Source: Escherichia coli
Lineage (GTDB): Bacteria > Pseudomonadota > Gammaproteobacteria > Enterobacterales > Enterobacteriaceae
Strand: one strand, 5' to 3'
Assembly (NCBI RefSeq): GCF_030013205.1
Contig: NZ_CP122648.1
Length of the DNA: 64,000 bases
Below, piece by piece: positions 46,197 through 57,448 of the stretch. The notes beneath the pieces were generated by a model. That model made no database searches. It was not told the origin of the DNA and saw nothing but the letters and a program-made list of their open reading frames with translations. The position numbers were made by a program, and so were the translations under genes. The stretch's first letter is position 1. Each line of letters begins with the position of its first letter.

Positions 46197-46517
46197 TCAG
46201 GCTTTTTCTAGCGTACACAGCAATGGATGCTCATTCTCCCTCGCGTACTTGTTCACCATCGCCACTTTGGTTTCTGCAACCTCGGCGGTAAAGACTCCGC
46301 AAATGGCCTTCCCCTGGTAGTGAACAGCGAGCATCAATTGCGTTGCACGTTCTACATCATAAGAAAAGAATTTTTGTAACACGTCAATAACAAACTCCAT
46401 CGGAGTGTAATCATCATTGACTAATATCACTTTATACATAGATGGCGGTTTTAGCGCGTCGCGAACTTTTTCTTCCGCCAGTTGATCAAAGTCCAGCCAG
46501 TCGTTCGTTTTACCCAT
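46197..46517 (-). CDS. clpS: Clp adaptor ClpS
   Basis: 106-aa [46 protein letters not shown]... Confidence 0.95.
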
Positions 46518-46690
46518 TGTCAGTTATCATCTTCGGTTACGGTTATCGGCAGAACGCCCTGCCGCTGACAAGAGCTTATTTGCCTGACCAATCTACTCCA
46601 CATGATAGATAACTATCATTTATATCATTTAGTTAATTAGTCTTTATTTTTCATTATGTTGCAAATAACAACCCCGTCAAAAACAGTGAT

Positions 46691-46715
46691 ATTAACTACA
46701 CCATTAACTACACCG
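46691..46715. repeat. island-end repeat attaactacaccattaactacaccg (tandem 12-mers)
   Basis: Near-identical 25-mer at 57068..57092; both followed by CGAACAA-type motifs. Confidence 0.6.
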
Positions 46716-47303
46716 CTTCACGAACAATATCGAACAACCGCGAACAAAGATCAACACGCTTTAATCATTATCATTTTCCGGCTATCCGTCATGAAGCTGG
46801 TGGATGATCTGCGTGGTGATTTCCACCATTCAGAGCAGGGGCGGTCATCATGACCATGCCATAACAAAAACCCCATATTCGTGGTTTTTCTGTGTCGGGG
46901 CTATTCTGCTGTTGCCGTGCTGGTGGATATTCTCCGGTATGCGGCTCCCCATATCGGCATCAGGCCCACCAGCGTGAAGCGTTTTTCATTTTTCGCGGGT
47001 ATAAAAAATCGATGGGGCGGGCAGTCCTGAAGACGTCAGGGTACGGAGATTTGACCCGCCCCTCCCTGTGCATGAGCACAATAAGTAACCGAAGGCGGAA
47101 TTCCGCCCTCGGTACTTACATATGAGAAACGATATTTCTTCCACCGATACCCTTTATTTGGGTATTGCGAGTAAGCCCCAAAATCTGGGTGTTACTCTTA
47201 CTACCCAAACTACGGGTAGTTTCCGTAGTTTCATGGTCGAGTTGCAAATCTGCAACTCACCCACCAGCCAACGCAATTTTGCGTTATCGGGAATATCAGC
47301 AAG

Positions 47304-47591
47304 TTACCGCCGCAGTCGTTCCGGCTTCTTCCACTGGTAAGTATTTTTCGCGCTCTCCCTCCGTTGTTGAGAACGGCGACGGTATGCCAGCAACTCAAGG
47401 ACTCTGGTTCGTATGTTGCGCATATCCACGCCGTTAAGCTCAATACCATCACGGCGCATCACCTCAGCAACAACACGCGCGTAATTTTCAGCGGTGACTG
47501 TATCCGGCTGCGCGGCCTGTTCGTCAGCCAACTGGCTGATTCCACCAGCACAGCGGATTAATCGCAGTATTTCAGATTCGGTCATTATCAT
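47304..47591 (-). CDS. hypothetical protein downstream of terS-like gene
   Basis: 95-aa ORF, ATG overlaps the upstream stop. Confidence 0.5.
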   Translation of the reverse strand: MIMTESEILRLIRCAGGISQLADEQAAQPDTVTAENYARVVAEVMRRDGIELNGVDMRNIRTRVLELLAYRRRSQQRRESAKNTYQWKKPERLRR

Positions 47592-48073
47592 GCCTGTTTT
47601 GCGACCTCATTCACTACGTCATTTTTTACCATCCGGCTGATAATCTGATTACACAAATCGTCAATAATTGACTGCACTCTGTTTACTGCCATCGGTTTAA
47701 GCCCGGCATCACGTGCCAGAATATTGGGGAGTTTTGCCAGTTCCTCGCTTACGATTTCCCCCCATATAGCCATCTCTTTTCGCACATCATCGGCGGGTAT
47801 GAGTTGCGCCGTTTCCTGTTCGAACTTGAGGCGTTCACGTTCGGACTGATACCAGGCCTTACGGTCTTGTGGCTCCATTTCTTCCAGTGATGCCGGAACG
47901 GGAAGATCAAGAAAACAGGTCAGAATGTCAGTCACCCGATAGAGTTTCAGCTTGTCATGCCCTCCGGCTGGCTGGATGTTTTTCAGCCTTGCCGCCGCAG
48001 TCTGACGACATATTCCCGCTATCGCCGCCAGTTGATTAATGTTCAGCATCAGATTTTTCAGTTCTCGATCCAT
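47588..48073 (-). CDS. Nu1-like small terminase subunit / packaging-redirection (Rpp-like) protein
   Basis: ATG at 48073 (MDRELKNLMLNINQLAAIAGICRQTAAARL...), N-terminal wHTH plus coiled coil resembling lambda Nu1; the track start at 48160 is TTG. Confidence 0.55.
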   Translation of the reverse strand: MDRELKNLMLNINQLAAIAGICRQTAAARLKNIQPAGGHDKLKLYRVTDILTCFLDLPVPASLEEMEPQDRKAWYQSERERLKFEQETAQLIPADDVRKEMAIWGEIVSEELAKLPNILARDAGLKPMAVNRVQSIIDDLCNQIISRMVKNDVVNEVAKQA

Positions 48074-48226
48074 ACCCGCTCCAGAATGTTTTAAACATGC
48101 ATCTTGCGAACAACTTTCAGAAGAGGTCAAAAAATGCGCTATATGTTGAGCATAAAACAAGCAAAATTAACATGCCAAAAATAAAAATACTTAAAATTCA
48201 ATACAATATGAAGATGATGATGACGA

Positions 48227-48322
48227 ATGAAAATGCAAAAACTAGCCTTTTTCCGCGCCGCTCCCGCCCCGTGGCAGACCACTCCACCGGGAGGACCCGT
48301 AAAAAAGGCGGCTGTCGCCGCC
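48227..48322. repeat. conserved intergenic element A (about 72 nt shared with element B, then a GC hairpin)
   Basis: About 85 percent identical to 50761..50832; hairpin ggcggctgtcgccgcc at 48307..48322. Confidence 0.6.
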
Positions 48323-48329
48323 CTTGTTG

Positions 48330-50243
48330 TCATGCTCCACTCGATTTCAGTAATCCGCGATAATCGAGGGCCGCGACACCTGCATCTATGCGCACTTTCC
48401 AGGCGACACCATCAACAGTAAAGCCCACCTGCTCCTCAAGATATGGCGTATCCATACCATCAAGATAAGCGACTTCTATTGTGTCCATCCCCTTAGCTGC
48501 GGCTACATACCATTCCTTGCTATTGGCCTTATCAAGACGTGGCTCAACAATTACTTCTGCCATATCTTTCACCACGTTAATGATGCCGGGGTTCTGATTG
48601 ATAGTGCTCTCATCACCAACCGGAAAGACTGATGACGATGACAGAATGGCGCGACGCGCGGCAGATTCCAGCGCGGCAGGGACCAGAACAAAAGCAGGGG
48701 TAATATTCAGTGAGTCGCCGTTAGCATCCTCCTGGAGGCGCATCAGCTTACGGGCTTCATCAAGCCCCACCATGTCCATATCCTTCGCAATAAGATTTTT
48801 ATGATCGGCATGGAATAACGCTTTACCATCCGTAAATTTGCCGTTGCTGGTTAACAGAAGATAAACCAGATTACCTACTGTTCTGGCGGCCGCACGCCCC
48901 ATCGCCATGGGGATTGTAGTTAACTGGGTCAGGTCATCGTTGATAATGGCCTGACGGGTAACAGAAAAAATATTACCGTATGTGGCCAGCGCAATAGGTA
49001 CACCTTTATCGCTGGTGGTGATGTATTTATATTCCGCACCTTCCGGTACTTTATCCAGCTTTGAAAAACCATTCAGACCAACGCGCTTTGCTTCATGAAA
49101 GTTTGAAAGCGATCCGGTACGCGTCCATTTCTGGAACGTTTCGCCGCTGTCCTGCCAGCCTTTCAGCACTGATTTTTCAGCACCACCAGCCAGAATATGA
49201 GAAAAATCGCTGCTGCTGTGTGTGAAAGCTGCATTAACGACCTGCGAGCGATTTAAAAAACTGCCAACACTGATACCACGATCAGTTAGTGATGCCTGGG
49301 CCATTTCAAAAAGGCTCATCATCGCGTAAGGATTTCCCCGCTCTGGGCGTTCATACCCAAGACGAGAATAAAGCCCCTGACGAATTGCATCGCCTGTTAT
49401 GTTCCCGTTACCGGCATAAATATGAGTCGGGATATTTTTATTGGATGGCGTGGACTCGCGCCCCAGCTCGTTCAACAACTTTTCACGGGCCATCTCCGGT
49501 GTACATGATGCATCCTCCAGGCACGCCATTTTGATCCCGTCGTAACGACTGCCGAACAGGCTAAACACTTCACTTATTCCGTTGATGCGCTTCTGTTCAT
49601 TACCAGCAATATTGGCTGCTCCCTGTGGCGGGGTAATCATTCCTTTAATGGTTTCAGGCATGTGTGAAAAATCTCCTGTGCGTTTCGATTCAATTCGCGC
49701 CATTGCTGTGACAGATGGCAACAATTCATCAGCAAAACCGTGCTTAAGGCATTCTTTCCCGTCCATCCAGGTTTCATCTTCCAGCATGGCGGTAATTTCC
49801 TGTGCTGATTTGCCCGTTTTTCTGGCATAAGCAGGGACTAACACGGTTTCCACCTTATCCAGCAAATCAGCATAATCACGCATATCACCAGCATTTCCGC
49901 CAGAGATACCCCACGGCTTATGTATCATCATCATGGCGTTTTCCGGCATCACAACACGATCGCCAGCCATTGCGACAACCGAAGCCATTGAAGCCGCAAC
50001 ACCATCGATATAAACCGTAATTTCTGCCGGATGATTCCGTAACAGGTTATAGATGGCGATGCCTTCAAACACGTCACCACCTGGCGAATGGATCCGCAGG
50101 TCGATATGTGAGACATCGCCCAGGGCTTTCAGGTCTTCCGCAAACTGCTTCGCGGTAATACCGAAGCCGCCAATTTCTTCATAGATGGATATTTCTGCCG
50201 CTCCGCGAACACCCAGCGCCTTAATGGTGTACCAGTGATTCAT
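48330..50243 (-). CDS. prohead protease (ClpP/S49-like) fused to HK97-fold major capsid protein
   Basis: Single 637-aa ORF; N-terminal serine-protease-like region (HSPGGDVFEGIAIYN...), C-terminal roughly 400 aa capsid-like. Confidence 0.8.
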   Translation of the reverse strand: MNHWYTIKALGVRGAAEISIYEEIGGFGITAKQFAEDLKALGDVSHIDLRIHSPGGDVFEGIAIYNLLRNHPAEITVYIDGVAASMASVVAMAGDRVVMPENAMMMIHKPWGISGGNAGDMRDYADLLDKVETVLVPAYARKTGKSAQEITAMLEDETWMDGKECLKHGFADELLPSVTAMARIESKRTGDFSHMPETIKGMITPPQGAANIAGNEQKRINGISEVFSLFGSRYDGIKMACLEDASCTPEMAREKLLNELGRESTPSNKNIPTHIYAGNGNITGDAIRQGLYSRLGYERPERGNPYAMMSLFEMAQASLTDRGISVGSFLNRSQVVNAAFTHSSSDFSHILAGGAEKSVLKGWQDSGETFQKWTRTGSLSNFHEAKRVGLNGFSKLDKVPEGAEYKYITTSDKGVPIALATYGNIFSVTRQAIINDDLTQLTTIPMAMGRAAARTVGNLVYLLLTSNGKFTDGKALFHADHKNLIAKDMDMVGLDEARKLMRLQEDANGDSLNITPAFVLVPAALESAARRAILSSSSVFPVGDESTINQNPGIINVVKDMAEVIVEPRLDKANSKEWYVAAAKGMDTIEVAYLDGMDTPYLEEQVGFTVDGVAWKVRIDAGVAALDYRGLLKSSGA

Positions 50244-50760: not shown

Positions 50761-50858
50761 ATGAAAATGCAAAAACCAGCCTTTTTCCGCGACGCTCCCG
50801 CCCCGTGGCAGGTCACTACACCGGGAGGACCCATAAAAAAGCCGGATTGCTCCGGCTT
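50761..50858. repeat. conserved intergenic element B (copy of element A core, different terminal hairpin)
   Basis: atgaaaatgcaaaaaccagcctttttccgcg...ccgggaggaccc then gccggattgctccggc hairpin with T-run on the minus strand. Confidence 0.6.
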
Positions 50859-51583: not shown

Positions 51584-51812
51584 TTCACCTGTTCACCTTT
51601 TGATATTTTATCTTTTAATTCATAATGTTAAGGGGTGAACAGTTTCACAAAAACTATTCACCAACTGTTCACCACTGTTCACCCTTGAAGCTCAATAAAC
51701 AATCAAAAAGGTGAACAGTGAATAGTTTGGTGAACAGTTCATAAATAACTGTTCACCCTATAACATACTGATACAAAAGATATTTATGACAGGGTGAACA
51801 GTGGTGAACAGT
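51584..51812. repeat. iteron array: at least 9 copies of TGTTCACC/GGTGAACA in both orientations (P4 ori/crr-like)
   Basis: Octamers counted at 51590, 51634, 51666, 51676, 51710, 51729, 51750, 51793, 51803, with TATTCACC variants; immediately downstream of the alpha-like gene. Confidence 0.7.
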
Positions 51813-51824
51813 TATTCCATAAGT

Positions 51825-53642
51825 TTAATTTTTGCTATCGTCATTAGTGACCGATACACATGATGGCATCCAGTCTTCTGATTCCTCCGTCAGTGTCACG
51901 TTTGAACGCAAACCGTGCTTCGTTTTCCGTTTCATATACTCCCTGCCATATTCCGCCATTGCCCCCGGCATATCTTTACCGAAGCGCGTCAGTGTTACAG
52001 GTTTACCAAACCCATGTGCCCTCATATAAGCCAGATAGGCATGATAGAGATACCTGCGTGGGCTGAATGGCACAATTTCAGCATTACCCACTAACAGGCC
52101 ATCACACATTACCGACGCCATGAGATAGCCGCAGAAGTCCACCAGCGAATCCCCCTCTCGCTTTATCGCCAGTGCTTCTTCAGATTTCTGCTGCTCATAT
52201 AACAGGCGTCTGGCTTCGTCCTGGTCAGCAAACCGTGTAAGCAGATGGCGAATCACTACCGCCAGCTCACCTTCTATTTTTTCCGCCAGCATTGGATCGC
52301 GTTCGTTCTCCGGTACAACTTCCGAAAAATTGAATATCACCCGACGACGTGAGATCCCCCCGCTGCGGTCACTGAATGACATGGCGTTATTGTTAACCGC
52401 CAGCACTACTGCCGGAATACGCGTTGAGTAGGGGGCTTTGTGTTTCGGGTCAATTGCCACCTTGTCACCGCCTGTAATGGCCTTAATTCCTGCCCCATCA
52501 CCAGCGTAGCGGGTCATATCCGGCATGATAATCAGCGAAAAGCCAACCACTAACGCGCGTTCCCTTGCATCTTCCAGCGCCTTCATGCTTGCCGATACTG
52601 TGTTGGCCTTACCCGCCAGCATGGTGCAAATCTCCGCCATCACGCTTTTACCACTTCCCCCTGGACCTGTTACCTCAATGAATAACTGCCAGTCGTACCG
52701 GTTCGCCAGCACCATGAATAATGCAGCCAGTACGCGATCCGCCTTGCGGTCATTCTCAGCCACCGAACGGCGTAACCACTTCCAGAAATTCGGCGCATGT
52801 GTTGCCAGCGTTTCCCCCTCTGCTGGTGGGCTGAAAGGTAATTCACTGGCAATTAACAACCAGTCGTTTTTGTTATGCTCCCGAAAATTACCTGTTCTGG
52901 TATCAAATACCCCGTTACTGAATCCAATCAGGTTACGGGCTGTATTCCCCATAACAGGCAAACTTAACTTCATGGTATCGACCGCCGATTTAATGGCGTT
53001 CTGCGAATAGCTGATCTCCGCATCAATGAAAATCTGTGCCATAGCTCGCTGTAATTCTTTATCCTGTACTGGCTCCCATACAACGCCGTTGTAATGGTGA
53101 ACAGTGTCAGAGTCAGCATGAATCGCCAGTTCACCGCCATAATGTGCCAGGAGAACTTCGCCGCGTTGACTTGCTCCCATCTGGTTAAGCGCCAGTGATG
53201 AAGCGTTATCGTCTTTTACCCGCTCTTTTTTCTTTACAGGCAGTTCAACTACCTTTTTCTTTTCCGCCTGCTCTGCCCGTTCACGTTCCAGATATTCGCG
53301 CCAGTTCTCCCGTTTCTGGCTGTGCATTCCTTCAGGGTAATAATCAGCATCCCTGACACCTGCCGCTGCCAGTTTCTGCCCGATGGTATTAACAAGCCCC
53401 GGACGCAATAACCCCGCCTGGTAGAGACGCACGCGATAGCGTCCGTCCGGTACGATTTGCAGGTTGTCCAGTTCGGCAAGTTGTTGCTCTCCAAGCCAGA
53501 CAGGTGGCACGTTATCGCCAGCCAGTCGCCCGTCCTGTTCCTGCCACTGCTTCGCATGTGCCCACGCATCACTACCCGCAAAAATGATGACTTCCGTCAT
53601 TTTGTCACGCGGCTGGTGTTTTAAATTTGGCGCTTTTTTCAT
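51825..53642 (-). CDS. P4 alpha-like replication protein (D5_N / SF3 helicase, primase-helicase family)
   Basis: Walker A GPGGSGKS; ATG at 53642 with GGAGAG RBS; the track start at 53657 is GTG. Confidence 0.8.
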   Translation of the reverse strand: MKKAPNLKHQPRDKMTEVIIFAGSDAWAHAKQWQEQDGRLAGDNVPPVWLGEQQLAELDNLQIVPDGRYRVRLYQAGLLRPGLVNTIGQKLAAAGVRDADYYPEGMHSQKRENWREYLERERAEQAEKKKVVELPVKKKERVKDDNASSLALNQMGASQRGEVLLAHYGGELAIHADSDTVHHYNGVVWEPVQDKELQRAMAQIFIDAEISYSQNAIKSAVDTMKLSLPVMGNTARNLIGFSNGVFDTRTGNFREHNKNDWLLIASELPFSPPAEGETLATHAPNFWKWLRRSVAENDRKADRVLAALFMVLANRYDWQLFIEVTGPGGSGKSVMAEICTMLAGKANTVSASMKALEDARERALVVGFSLIIMPDMTRYAGDGAGIKAITGGDKVAIDPKHKAPYSTRIPAVVLAVNNNAMSFSDRSGGISRRRVIFNFSEVVPENERDPMLAEKIEGELAVVIRHLLTRFADQDEARRLLYEQQKSEEALAIKREGDSLVDFCGYLMASVMCDGLLVGNAEIVPFSPRRYLYHAYLAYMRAHGFGKPVTLTRFGKDMPGAMAEYGREYMKRKTKHGLRSNVTLTEESEDWMPSCVSVTNDDSKN

Positions 53643-53938
53643 TTCGGCTCTCTCCACGCGGCAATCATGTTTTTCAGTTCCTGCAGTTTTTTATCCACAT
53701 CCACACGTGACACATGGTTATTTCTGGAAGTCGGGATTTCCCGCCGGAATCTGCTAATAAAGATCTCCACGTTCAGCGAACTATGAAATGAATAGCCATC
53801 ACGAATAAAATACACACGGTCAAACATCAGTTCTTTTACCGTTACTCTGTTACCGTTCTTATCCAGATAAATAGCGCCGGGGATAATTTTGGGGTGTGCA
53901 TAACCGCTGGCAGTCAAGCCAGATAAATATGTTCTCAT
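53639..53938 (-). CDS. hypothetical protein
   Basis: 99-aa ORF, overlapping start/stop with the alpha-like gene. Confidence 0.45.
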   Translation of the reverse strand: MRTYLSGLTASGYAHPKIIPGAIYLDKNGNRVTVKELMFDRVYFIRDGYSFHSSLNVEIFISRFRREIPTSRNNHVSRVDVDKKLQELKNMIAAWREPK

Positions 53939-53944
53939 GATTAT

Positions 53945-54265
53945 TTATCCCCGATTTGAATCAGTATTCGCTTTCTTTATGGCATTTAATGCATCTGTGG
54001 CATTTTCAATGGTGCACCGTAACGAAATATCAAACTGCCCAAGCATTGCCAGTAACAAACCGATATTACCCATATCAATGCGCATGGCCTTTTCGTCATA
54101 GTCCTCATTTTCTGACGCATGCCACATCAGGCTACCAATTGACGCAACAGCCATTGATATATTGTCAGTAGCCCCATCAGCAGCGGAATAAACCTTTTTA
54201 GCAATATCATGCTCACAGTTAAAATGCGGATTAATCAGGTACTGGTAATTTGACATATCAGGCAT
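53945..54265 (-). CDS. hypothetical protein
   Basis: 106-aa ORF. Confidence 0.45.
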   Translation of the reverse strand: MPDMSNYQYLINPHFNCEHDIAKKVYSAADGATDNISMAVASIGSLMWHASENEDYDEKAMRIDMGNIGLLLAMLGQFDISLRCTIENATDALNAIKKANTDSNRG

Positions 54266-54461
54266 GGCACACCCCCTGACGAATACGGGCGGCGAATACC
54301 ATCACGTAGCCAGCCGGGGATTGCTGGCGTGCTTCCTGTTCACTGGTGGCCTCAATGGTAATCACGCGCGGTTGTGCCGTGCTCAGGGCGATAAAACGCC
54401 AGATGTATTTATTCAGGTTGTACGAGTCCCGCCCTTGCGGGTGTCTGGTATAATTTCTCAT
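54258..54461 (-). CDS. hypothetical small protein (real part of a spurious 302-aa track ORF)
   Basis: Internal ATG at 54461 with GAGG RBS (MRNYTRHPQGRDSYNLNKYIW...). Confidence 0.3.
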   Translation of the reverse strand: MRNYTRHPQGRDSYNLNKYIWRFIALSTAQPRVITIEATSEQEARQQSPAGYVMVFAARIRQGVCHA

Positions 54462-54540
54462 AGCTGCCTCGATACTGTTGCTATCGTTGGTGGTTAGACG
54501 CCCTGCATGTGTGCCACCACTGCGGGGCGTTGTTGCTTGG

Positions 54541-54630
54541 TGCATCGCACCATTCGTTTTTAACCTATCAGCAAGTGAATCGCACTTCAAGCCTTTCTCT
54601 GAAATTTTTTTTGTGTATACTGAATCGCAC
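54541..54630. promoter_or_regulatory. three direct repeats TG(C/A)ATCGCAC plus a TATACT -10-like box upstream of the RHH gene
   Basis: Copies at 54541, 54576 and 54621; TATACT at 54616..54621. Confidence 0.4.
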
Positions 54631-54651
54631 CAACTTAGAGAGGATTCAGTA

Positions 54652-54831
54652 ATGGCAACAGGTTCAACAAATAATAAGTCGCAACAGTTAAATGCCAGAT
54701 TCCCGCATGATGTTGTTGCAGACTTAGAAAAAAATTTAGATGAAGGTGAAAGCAAGGCGCAATTTATAGTTACTGCCGTTAAAGGCGAGATCAAACGCCG
54801 CCAGCGCCGCAAGGCCAAAGAGCAGGAGTAA
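54652..54831 (+). CDS. ribbon-helix-helix (Arc/CopG-like) DNA-binding protein
   Basis: 59 aa; N-terminal beta-strand-like LNARFPHDVVADL; GAGAGG RBS. Confidence 0.55.
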   Translation: MATGSTNNKSQQLNARFPHDVVADLEKNLDEGESKAQFIVTAVKGEIKRRQRRKAKEQE

Positions 54832-54873
54832 CCATCACCAGCGCCGTGGTGTGAGTAACTACGGCGCATTGCT

Positions 54874-55062
54874 ATGCAGGACAACACAATGACCGATAAA
54901 GAATTGACCAAAACATTATCACCGGCACGGAAAAGACGGCGCAGAAAGATAGAGCATGAATCAGAAAGATTCGCGCCATGTGCTTTTGCTCTTGAGAAAT
55001 TCCTTAAAGAGCACAGGAAAAAGCTCTCGTTGCAAACCTTGGAACGAACCAAATCTGACTGA
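54874..55062 (+). CDS. hypothetical small basic protein
   Basis: 62-aa ORF followed by hairpin ggcgaccgcccccggtcgcc with T-run. Confidence 0.3.
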   Translation: MQDNTMTDKELTKTLSPARKRRRRKIEHESERFAPCAFALEKFLKEHRKKLSLQTLERTKSD

Positions 55063-55176
55063 TCACATTGCCCACCAGCCGCAAATGTGGCATTGTTGGT
55101 GATGCGTTCAAGTTTAGTGTGTATCCATTGGCGACCGCCCCCGGTCGCCTTTGTTTTATATGTCATATGCTCCCCT

Positions 55177-55386
55177 TTACGCTGCCTTGCCTGAATTAAT
55201 GCGATCCCGGCTTTTAACCCATTCCATAACCTCGGACAGCAGCCAACCTACAGAACGACCGCCCAGATTACGGCGTGACGGGAAATTCCCTTTTTTCTCC
55301 AGTTCATAGCGTGTAGTGCGACACACTCCAGTTAACTTACGACATTCATCCTCACGGATTACGCGATCTTCATTTATTTCACGCAT
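55177..55386 (-). CDS. alpA: AlpA-family transcriptional regulator
   Basis: 69 aa, MREINEDRVIREDECRKLTGVCRTTRYELEKKGNFP... typical AlpA/Xis HTH. Confidence 0.8.
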   Translation of the reverse strand: MREINEDRVIREDECRKLTGVCRTTRYELEKKGNFPSRRNLGGRSVGWLLSEVMEWVKSRDRINSGKAA

Positions 55387-55805
55387 ACAAAAACCTACAT
55401 AAAAAATTACGTATATAAACTTTTCTCTTAGCTGTAGATATATGAGATCGGATATTACTTAGATTCTTTTTTCACCTCTTAAATTAAAAACACAACCTTG
55501 CTAAAGGCTTTGTTCGCTAAGGTTCGTAGAAGCTCGTTAGTGTTTAAAATCGTGTCACGAGTTTTTAAGCGATGCAACAAAAAATGTCGTTACTTGGCAT
55601 TACGCTTGAATTATCTCATTAAAAACAAATAGATAAACCATCAAGTGTTGGAACAATCAAGAAACAGAGAATAAAAGTTCAGAAGAAGACATTCCAATTT
55701 TTTGATGGTTGACATATATAAAGCGAAGATATTTGCAGATATTTTCCGATATTCTACGATTTATTCACGGCTGTAATCTCTTAAAGAAAAAACAGCCGTA
55801 ATTTG

Positions 55806-57053
55806 TCAAGAATTTTGGGGGTAAATTCGCGGGGTCATAACAACGATTTTTTCATCATTGTTCTGGAGAAGCTCGAGACGGTCTACCCATAGATTAAGAG
55901 CATCACGTTTTGCATCAAGATAACGGGAGTGGTTATAGACTCGTTGCATCCCCGGCATCTGGTGGGCGGTAAGCTGCTCGACAATATGCGGATCCACGCC
56001 TAAATCGTTCAGCATGGTTGTAAATGTGTGCCGGATGTCATGCAACGACCAGGGGGCTTGATTAATGCGTCTGTGTGCCGTTCTTCCGTACTCTGCTACG
56101 GATGATTGCCCTTTCAGTTCTCCAAGCAATAAGCCCGTGTGCCTGTTCTTCTCCACCAGCTTCATGACAAACGGCAAGATCGCTTCCGGTATTGGCCTGA
56201 ATATTGCTACCTTCGTTTTGCTGTGTTCTTTCGGCACAGTCCAGAGCATTTCTTTAAAATCCCATTCCTGAACCTCGGAGCGTCTTAGCTCAGTGGTACG
56301 GCATCCAAAGACAATCAGAAGGCGAATTAAGGCGCTGTAGTACGGCGGGAAAATTTTTTCATCCAGTGCGCGGAGTAGCTCGCCAAGCTCCTTGTTTGTT
56401 AGCACTCGCTCGCTTATTTCTGCTTTTTTTCCCACATCACCTACGACCATATCATCAAGAACGTTACTGACGGCGTAGCGACGTTTACGGCAGTACTTAA
56501 GCGCCTGCTTGCATACCTGCAACAAAAAGCCGGCTGATACCGGATTACGCTTAGCAAGCTGGTCAAAACAGGCCAGCCAGTGGCGTAACTCGCATTTATC
56601 CAGCGGCATAGCACCAATCTGGCTGATTATGTGCTTATTGATCCGGCTTTTCAGTGATTCGTGGTCAGTGCGCTTTTCCTTCGCGTATGACTCAAGCCAG
56701 TAAGTGATCGCGTCCTTAACCGTTACAGGTGCTAACGCTTCCTGCACTGTGTGATTAAGCTCATGGCGTGGATTTTTCCCCTCCGCCAGCCAGGCGCGAC
56801 ACTGTGCCGCTTTTTCTCTGGCTGCTTTCAGGCTCAGATCGGGATAGTTGCCCAGTCTCAGGCGTTCCGGTGATACCTGCCTGCCAGTTCCGGCCCTGTA
56901 AGTGAAATACCAGGTTAACAGGCCATTGGTTGAATGCCTTACGCTAAGGTTGCCACCATCATTAAAAAAGGTGTTTTTTGTGGTTGGTGATCCGCTTAAT
57001 TTTCGTAAAAGAGTGTCGCTAAGTCTATGAATTGCCCTGCTCATGTTTCGCAT
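55806..57053 (-). CDS. int: tyrosine integrase (P4-type)
   Basis: 415 aa with catalytic-region motifs (HDIRHTFTT, YNHSRY); at the island end next to cspD. Confidence 0.9.
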   Translation of the reverse strand: MRNMSRAIHRLSDTLLRKLSGSPTTKNTFFNDGGNLSVRHSTNGLLTWYFTYRAGTGRQVSPERLRLGNYPDLSLKAAREKAAQCRAWLAEGKNPRHELNHTVQEALAPVTVKDAITYWLESYAKEKRTDHESLKSRINKHIISQIGAMPLDKCELRHWLACFDQLAKRNPVSAGFLLQVCKQALKYCRKRRYAVSNVLDDMVVGDVGKKAEISERVLTNKELGELLRALDEKIFPPYYSALIRLLIVFGCRTTELRRSEVQEWDFKEMLWTVPKEHSKTKVAIFRPIPEAILPFVMKLVEKNRHTGLLLGELKGQSSVAEYGRTAHRRINQAPWSLHDIRHTFTTMLNDLGVDPHIVEQLTAHQMPGMQRVYNHSRYLDAKRDALNLWVDRLELLQNNDEKIVVMTPRIYPQNS

Positions 57054-57067
57054 TTCCGGTCATCAAA

Positions 57068-57092
57068 ATTAACTACACCATTGACTACACCG
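57068..57092. repeat. island-end repeat attaactacaccattgactacaccg
   Basis: 24 of 25 identical to 46691..46715; 15 bp beyond the integrase start. Confidence 0.6.
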
Positions 57093-57448
57093 TGCATCGT
57101 ACAAGGGCAAACAGCGACGAACAAGGGCGAACAAGAAAAACGAAATTTTCCTTTATAATCATAGCAATAAATGAGATAGATACACCACGACGAACACCCG
57201 CGAACACTAACTGATAAATAACTATCATCTATCGTTGGCATCAGCGACATCTGTCACATTCCTGTCAATAGCGTTAACTGCTTCAAATTTTTGATTCATA
57301 CCTGCCCCCTGGCCCCTGTCAAATGCTTGACGGCTCGCCCTAATTCTCTAAATTGTATTTCTAGAGTTGACGAGGTTTTGAACAGCCCCCTCTCTGACCC
57401 CGGTTTATTCCATCTTACTTGTATAAGATTTGCGAAGGATGTCGAAGC

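Follow-up and report, generated by a model that had tools for sequence, protein, structure and literature searches.

Two 25-bp direct repeats lie close to the two ends of a small island of Escherichia coli, one of them next to the integrase gene, and the question raised by this locus is what these repeats are: the att cores duplicated by integration, arm-type sites held by the integrase, targets of another protein such as AlpA, or elements serving a process other than recombination. This question was addressed in the window, that is, in the whole 64-kb stretch of DNA analysed, and in related elements.

The 25-bp repeats and the ends of the island

The left 25-mer (attaactacaccattaactacaccg, 46691-46715) and the right 25-mer (attaactacaccattgactacaccg, 57068-57092), both read in the window sequence, are identical at 24 of 25 positions. 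Each of them is composed of two head-to-tail 12-mers, the left one being ATTAACTACACC-ATTAACTACACC-G and the right one ATTAACTACACC-ATTGACTACACC-G; the initial annotation was right in describing repeats of tandem 12-mers near both island ends, with the precision that the second unit of the right copy carries one mismatch. The 12-mer can be divided into an 8-bp conserved core, ACTACACC, and a 4-bp variable linker. In a search allowing up to two mismatches, these four units were the only copies of the 12-mer with zero or one mismatch in the window, and the tandem arrangement ACTACACC-N4-ACTACACC was found twice, as against none in 100 first-order Markov simulations. The similarity of the two ends detected by a repeat finder reaches 66 nt at 73% identity (46691-46756 versus 57068-57133), because the CGAACA units flanking the 25-mers are common to both ends.

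The alignment with an empty site, which had been suggested as the way to define the attB core, was carried out with BL21 and leads to a different sequence. A 21-bp imperfect repeat, TGATARATAACTATCATYTAT, is present at 46603-46623 and 57212-57232, and comparison with the empty site identifies it as the sequence duplicated by integration. Alignment of the BL21 site with the window extends through the left flank to TGATAGATAACTATCAT and resumes in the right flank at TGATA-ATAACTATCATCTAT; the site contains the 21-bp core once, and both the 12-mer and CGAACA are absent from it. The observation that the initial annotation named as refuting its claim, both copies in genomes lacking the island, was thus not made. 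On the left side, the attL core (TGATAGATAACTATCATTTAT, 46603..46623, plus strand) starts with the host half-site B (TGATAGAT, 46603-46610), continues with AACTATC, the 7-bp overlap (46611-46617), and reaches into the island half-site C' (ATTTATAT, 46618-46625). On the right side, the attR core (TGATAAATAACTATCATCTAT, 57212..57232, plus strand) starts with the island half-site C (TGATAAAT, 57212-57219), continues with the same overlap (57220-57226) and reaches into the host half-site B' (ATCTATCG, 57227-57234). The two cores differ at position 6, where the host has G and the island A, and at position 18, where the island has T and the host C, and the distribution of these mismatches between attL and attR places the crossover inside ATAACTATCAT.

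The attP junction predicted from these cores is TGATAAATAACTATCATTTAT, with C, the overlap and C' in this order, and its half-sites are imperfect inverted repeats flanking the overlap. A cleaner equivalent is found in the core of EcCICFT073 (TGATAAAA / TATGTCC / TTTTATCA), the prototype Gram-negative phage-inducible chromosomal island (PICI), a kind of phage satellite (ISME J 2018, PMC6092414). The predicted junction appears verbatim in the IMG/VR contig L050, and that of a sister element in contig L112, which shows a 119-bp terminal overlap. Contig L050 was considered as proof of a free circle and rejected, since one of its ends runs into clpS; it represents a P-core-P' junction, from a tandem copy or a mixed assembly, and not necessarily a circle. 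Among 5426 complete genomes of E. coli, 5058 have the site intact and 366 carry this P arm at yljB, two figures that together account for all 5424 matching genomes. The attB core is a near-palindrome, ATGATAG-ATAA-CTATCAT (57220-57234), and overlaps the stop codon (57225-57227, minus strand) of yljB, a 24-codon gene (57225-57299, minus strand) that remains intact after integration. As a consequence of the insertion, 10.6 kb come to lie between clpS and the yljB and cspD genes.

Both 25-mers are therefore internal to the island, the left one starting 67 bp past the attL core and the right one ending 120 bp before the attR core. The statement that they delimit the island has to be corrected, its ends being the att cores. 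Similarly, the right copy was placed 15 bp beyond the int start, a distance that is true for the longest open reading frame (ATG at 57053); it begins 24 bp upstream of the start codon annotated by RefSeq at 57044, with a 23-bp gap.

The element is a 10.6-kb PICI of the EcCICFT073 family integrated between clpS (46197-46517, minus strand, the flanking host gene) and yljB/cspD, with 10,609 bp separating the two overlaps. The segment between clpS and cspD carries, on the minus strand in every case, int, alpA, an Icd-like gene, a DUF4222 gene, a primase gene, ssb, a capsid fusion and a DUF1441 gene. As in Gram-negative PICIs, int, alpA and a primase-type gene are co-oriented, with the probable origin downstream and a dedicated att site; the size is in the range of 10-15 kb, and annotation and Pfam revealed no tail or lysis genes, nor a portal or large terminase gene, on the island. 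The tyrosine integrase is encoded at 55806..57044 (minus strand; longest ORF to 57053; PF00589, E 2.7e-18), the RefSeq start at 57044 being in agreement with that of the EcCICFT073 integrase (MSRA...). An Arm-DNA-bind_3 domain (PF13356, E 7.9e-17) spans residues 11-98 of the protein, whose N-domain gives a weak match to that of the CP4-like integrase 3jtz. The alpA gene (55177..55386, minus strand) codes for a 69-aa Phage_AlpA winged-helix regulator (PF05930, E 2.9e-16; AlpA-family match to PDB 8c3t). Annotation and Pfam also identify, on the same strand, a D5/DUF5906-type primase (51825-53657), a fusion of a ClpP-like prohead protease and a major capsid protein (Phage_capsid_4; 48330-50243) and a terminase-small-subunit-like DUF1441 gene (47588-48160); in EcCICFT073, a capsid gene of its own and a decoration gene are found instead of the fusion. 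A segment of E. coli KGu016 matches the island at 100% identity, and at least 80% of the island is carried by 52 complete genomes.

Other features of the island were observed along the way. Just downstream of the primase stop, dense direct and inverted GGTGAACAG / TGTTCACC iterons occupy 51589-51826, and they very likely constitute the replication origin of the island, as described for PICIs. A 94-nt direct repeat, 88% identical between its copies, is located directly downstream of the capsid-fusion gene (48227-48320) and directly downstream of ssb (50761-50854). On the gene strand, each copy opens with an intrinsic-terminator hairpin and a U6 tract, the stems differing in sequence, and contains a second, conserved hairpin (CCUCCCGG...CGGGAG), with folding z-scores of -3.2 and -1.9; an Rfam search of the island gave nothing relevant and no match for these repeats. 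The 302-aa ORF at 54258-55166 (minus strand) is probably not a gene, and RefSeq annotates in this interval only short genes on both strands (Icd-like, YlcI/YnfO and hypothetical).

Phased arrays and the layout of attP in relatives

The initial annotation had also pointed to clustered CGAACAA-type motifs after both repeats. These are real and more ordered than claimed: each doubled 12-mer is followed by 6 bp and then by CGAACA units that keep a strict 10-bp register throughout. In the P'-arm array (46721..46756, plus strand), three CGAACA units start at 46721, 46731 and 46741, and a degenerate one, TCAACA, at 46751. In the P arm, array A (57098..57137, plus strand) has units starting at 57098 (CGTACA), 57108 (CAAACA), 57118 and 57128 (both CGAACA), and array B (57191..57210, plus strand) consists of two CGAACAC units starting at 57191 and 57201 and abuts the core. 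Four phased CGAACA pairs were observed in comparison with a simulated mean of 0.01, and all of them are at the island ends. Read on the int strand, the units at 57098-57128, 57191 and 57201 are of the TGTTCG type, two of them being degenerate (TGTTTG and TGTACG), and phased GTTCG-type direct repeats are thus located between the core and the int-proximal 12-mers, as is characteristic of TorI/AlpA-type arrays.

A further array is found upstream of alpA (55512..55536), where GTTCG-N5-GTTCG-N5-GCTCG on the plus strand corresponds to CGAAC units on the alpA strand, and GCGAACAAAG is common to this array and to that of the P' arm. No ACTACACC-like site exists upstream of alpA, even at one mismatch. 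One array type is therefore present at the P arm, at the P' arm and upstream of alpA, being of the CGAAC type in this island. In EcCICFT073, arrays of the G[GA]AACA/GACACA type are found at the same three places, the region upstream of alpA harboring one array of six units and another of two to three.

In the excised form, the order on the plus strand would be as follows: the int start, P1-P2 (the doubled 12-mer ATTAACTACACC ATTGACTACACC, 57068..57091), 6 bp, four phased units, an AT-rich spacer with the TTTATAATCA block, two phased units, C-O-C', a 65-bp AT-rich spacer (46626..46690), P'1-P'2 (ATTAACTACACC twice, 46691..46714), 6 bp, and three to four phased units. All the arm elements are co-oriented, on the plus strand, and the P copy lies 232 bp from the P' copy. 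A scan of the att arms for the IHF consensus gave one site, TATCATTTAGTTA at 46623, which matches the consensus with one mismatch next to C', and no other; no clear IHF consensus was found. The TTTATAATCA block (57152..57161, plus strand) does not match this consensus either; it is largely conserved between integrase groups in the alignment and is possibly a bend or host-factor site.

Regarding the remaining signals of the arms, a sigma-70-like promoter matching the consensus at 10 of 12 positions (46680-46653, minus strand; TTGACG, 16 nt, CATAAT) adjoins the doubled motif of the P' arm and points to the core. It would read into clpS-clpA in the integrated state, where the island displaces their upstream region, and across attP toward int in the excised form; relatives retain its -10 element only in part. 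No sigma-70 promoter or terminator emerged when the P arm and the alpA-int spacer were scanned. Just inside the P'-arm array, the block TTATCATTTTCCGGCTATCCGTCATGAAGCTGGTGGATG (46757-46810) is common to elements of different integrase and AlpA types, and positions 46788-46804 have a 17-nt perfect inverted match in int (56152-56168).

The conservation of this architecture was studied in 55 IMG/VR stretches with the exact doubled motif, 80 loci retrieved by their integrase and several annotated E. coli loci. The integrase-retrieved IMG/VR loci mostly start exactly at int, so that the P arm is included in few of them, and about 16 were informative; an integrase scan of the genome contig collection returned a single unrelated locus at 23% identity. 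The architecture is common to three integrase groups, whose identity to the integrase studied here is at least 93%, about 77% (EcCICFT073) and about 76%, and both arms contain the doubled ACTACACC with its 12-bp period in elements with 75-100% identical integrases. In the integrase-retrieved loci, which were not selected on the motif, ACTACACC is invariant wherever the arm is present. The linker alone varies: two groups have ATTA or ATTG in both arms, and the third has AGTG or AATG, again in both. The AGTG linker goes with one int group; it is physically linked to the 5' end of int in attP, and the association may reflect linkage rather than co-adaptation. With only the linker bases varying, the covariation of the 12-mer with Int as against AlpA is weak.

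The P' arm is abutted by five different host flanks (clpS/yljB, phoQ/roxA, smrA/abgR and two more), and the elements thus integrate at no fewer than five sites. In reconstructed attP, the starts of the P and P' copies are separated by 232, 233 and 233 bp at the three sites for which this spacing was determined. A natural variation of this distance is offered by a locus of E. coli O170:H18 at the phoQ/roxA site (L138, 14014-14090), whose P arm lacks exactly one 10-bp phased unit: the doubled motifs are 222 bp apart versus the usual 232-233 bp, and helical phase is kept. An intasome scaffold would be expected to show just such a fixed spacing, in helical phase, across the crossover.

Candidate binding proteins and rival explanations

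The doubled 12-mers are probably arm-type sites of the integrase, a putative assignment made by analogy with characterized systems and the best supported of the readings considered, including those advanced in the initial annotation. They lie outside the core in both arms of attP, are co-oriented and have no counterpart in attB, and the integrase has a separate N-terminal arm-binding domain. In addition, ACTACACC is distinct from the core half-sites TGATAAAT and ATTTATAT, and its position in both arms is conserved in relatives. The assignment to the arm domain of Int is reached by elimination, since the arrays fit AlpA and there are four half-sites for four protomers.

The CGAACA arrays, in turn, are probably AlpA/excisionase boxes, likewise putative. 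It has been reported that AlpA alone activates PalpA, and that its overexpression induces int-dependent excision with Pint unchanged (PMC6092414); the same study contrasted AlpA with P4 Vis on the excisionase question. The lack of an AlpA effect on the Pint reporter is neutral with respect to arm binding and says nothing on Int. Binding of the arrays by AlpA is the simplest reading because the same type of array is present upstream of alpA, the gene that AlpA auto-activates (PMC6092414). Among relatives the array type tracks both the int group and the alpA type, and covariation cannot separate Int from AlpA as the binder of the arrays since the two are confounded.

Recombination takes place within AACTATC, the 7-bp overlap, on either side of which lie imperfect inverted core-type half-sites. 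Taken together, the above assignments suggest a model in which four integrase protomers would occupy the four half-sites with their N-terminal Arm-DNA-bind_3 domains while their C-terminal domains hold the cores, bridging the arms to the core and assembling the intasome as in lambda and KplE1. AlpA would bind the CGAACA arrays beside each pair and beside the core in a head-to-tail manner along one face of the DNA, bending the arms and driving the reaction toward excision, and the same kind of array upstream of alpA would mediate its published auto-activation. Bound integrase would probably also damp int transcription, since P1 and P2 start 24 bp ahead of the int start codon; no consensus sigma-70 promoter for int was found, and this autoregulatory step is thus speculative.

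The assignment might also be the reverse, with the doubled 12-mers bound by AlpA or another protein of the island or the host, and the CGAACA arrays serving as integrase arm sites or in another role. Xis/AlpA-type winged-helix proteins commonly bind tandem direct repeats; that the array type correlates both with the int group and with the alpA type also speaks in favor of it. For the related motif of helper-embedded PICIs, AlpA or another protein was left open as the binder (PMC10111431). However, AlpA acts in trans on PalpA (PMC6092414), which has phased CGAAC arrays and no ACTACACC-like site. The phased unit agrees, moreover, with the mutationally defined GTTCG sites of the KplE1 excisionase TorI in motif, phasing, position and orientation. 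Between integrase clades the doubled motif changes completely, from ACTACACC to GCAATACA, while a GAAC-type unit persists after some GCAATACA copies and in KplE1, many copies being without a clear array; and the site of a host factor is not expected to change with the integrase clade. On balance, the reversed assignment is rather unlikely.

The other two explanations fare worse. That the 25-bp repeats are the att core itself, an option contemplated in the initial annotation, is suggested by the presence of near-identical direct repeats close to both island ends, one of them next to int, but the empty BL21 site has no copy of them. What integration duplicated is the different 21-bp repeat, single in the empty site, from which the 25-mers are 67 bp (left) and 120 bp (right) away, and the same 25-mer is found in elements whose cores are unrelated and which are inserted at phoQ/roxA, at smrA/abgR and elsewhere; this explanation is refuted by the comparison with the empty site. 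It is also improbable that the repeats serve packaging, as cos/pac recognition sites, replication, or int control as an operator, instead of recombination. In this respect, the left copy is at the island end near the DUF1441 and capsid genes, and the start of the right copy just upstream of int makes an operator role plausible. Nevertheless, the helically phased distance of 232-233 bp at three sites is expected for an intasome and not for packaging or replication, and the iterons lie elsewhere, in the GGTGAACAG repeats at 51589-51826. An operator role of P1/P2 would not compete with their being arm sites, the two functions being compatible, as for IntS in KplE1 (PMC2951348).

With the 12-mers as putative arm sites and the arrays as putative AlpA boxes, a broader proposal can be made tentatively, as something quite possible: AlpA would read one 10-bp-phased GTTCG-type code, shared with TorI, at its own promoter and at both att arms, and the four half-sites spaced by 232 bp (about 22 helical turns) would define a minimal symmetric intasome, unlike the five-site one of lambda. 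If this were true, induction of alpA by the helper phage would directly flip the directionality of the integrase as well as switch the island on, and excisionase boxes could be predicted from sequence across PICI, P4-like and KplE1-like int-alpA modules. AlpA is thereby predicted to be an excisionase in addition to an activator. If the 12-mers are arm sites, changing ACTACACC to TGATGTGG should cost both integration and excision. PICIs, which are widespread, carry virulence and anti-phage genes, and EcCICFT073 is their Gram-negative model. What the present analysis adds is the core at 46603-46623/57212-57232 and a map of four putative arm sites and of four arrays of putative AlpA boxes, of which the att arms contain three and the region upstream of alpA the fourth, together with the finding that classical PICIs possess an equivalent of the doubled motif that had been reported for helper-embedded PICIs only. 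The advance is incremental and brings no new principle; it would be of use in the annotation of island boundaries and for PICI-based delivery vectors.

Comparison with known systems

In phage lambda, a heterobivalent Int recognizes arm sites to the left and right of a core whose overlap measures 7 bp; some of these arm sites are adjacent and in tandem, and directionality is imposed by a small winged-helix protein that binds head-to-tail beside an arm site. Several differences separate the two systems. Lambda has five arm sites (P1, P2 and P'1-P'3), different subsets of which are used for integration and excision, whereas the island has four in two pairs, and the arm-binding domain of lambda Int belongs to another family than that of the island integrase. 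Furthermore, the Xis sites of lambda are on one arm, while the arrays of the island are on both arms and at the promoter of the regulator itself, and lambda uses IHF and Fis, whereas the island has no clear IHF consensus.

KplE1 (CPS-53)/HK620 offers a parallel closer to the proposed arrangement. The sites of its excisionase TorI were defined by mutating GTTCG, GATCG and GTCCG (PLoS Genet 2010, PMC2951348). In the K-12 sequence, the TorI sites GTTCG, GTTCG and GATCG are at exactly 10-bp spacing (L137, 455, 465 and 475) and lie between the core and the arm sites of IntS, which abut the intS ATG. Motif, 10-bp phasing, order and orientation are the same as in the arrays described here, and in both cases two blocks are located between the core and the arm sites. 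Like the island, KplE1 encodes a small winged-helix protein, which in KplE1 is the excisionase TorI, and IntS shares the Arm-DNA-bind_3 domain with the island integrase. Its arm sites also abut the int start codon, the int promoter region overlapping att (PMC2951348). At the sequence level the two systems are distant: IntS is only 22% identical to the island Int, TorI is 25% identical to the island AlpA (E 5e-5) and scores below threshold against the Pfam AlpA profile, and the arm sites of IntS, which contain TAAA, bear no sequence relation to ACTACACC. The integration target of KplE1, unlike that of the island, is a tRNA gene, argW, and the binding sites of KplE1 were mapped by experiment, whereas those of the island are predicted from sequence.

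EcCICFT073 agrees with the island in the succession of its genes (int, alpA, icd-like, DUF4222, primase, ssb and capsid-related genes), and its Int is 77% identical to that of the island. Its two arms each contain the doubled 12-mer in identical or nearly identical form, the spacing is the same, and phased arrays lie at the same three places; no mapping of its attP architecture was found in the searchable literature. It differs in its site, phoQ/roxA, in its overlap, TATGTCC, in its AlpA allele, which is 59% identical, and in its array unit, G[GA]AACA/GACACA. The late genes are different as well, with the ClpP-capsid fusion and DUF1441 in the island.

The nearest precedent for the doubled 12-mers is a motif of helper-embedded PICIs, tgTGTATTGCantgTGTATTGCa, which has been described as occurring twice, co-oriented, at 81 and 132 bp from the attP centre (NAR Genom Bioinform 2023, PMC10111431). 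It was suggested to bind four integrase arm domains, with AlpA or another protein left open, and its authors report that they did not find it in other PICIs (PMC10111431). A full-text literature search for the motif strings of the island gave no prior mention, only unrelated primer sequences. The likeness between both motifs is evident in an 8-bp core arranged in tandem with a 12-bp period and in two co-oriented copies that flank the attP centre. Measured from the nearest edges to the centre of the overlap, the distances in the island are 77 and 132 bp, as compared with the published 81 and 132 bp; from centre to centre they are 88 and 143 bp, about 10 bp off the published values, which may have been measured otherwise. 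The sequences themselves have diverged. On the int strand, where the unit of the island is GGTGTAGTTAAT, the core is GGTGTAGT(TAAT) versus TGTATTGC in helper-embedded PICIs, only GTGTA being shared, and in the checked loci with the published motif Int is 38-44% and AlpA 41-55% identical to those of the island. The int-proximal copies of the published motif that were checked are just upstream of the int start, and some GCAATACA copies are followed by GAAC-type units, for instance CGCGAACCAC-GCCGAACAAT in L153, many others having no clear array. Judged by sequence and arrangement, the 25-mers represent a divergent counterpart of the described doubled motif in the classical EcCICFT073 family, the binder being putative in both.
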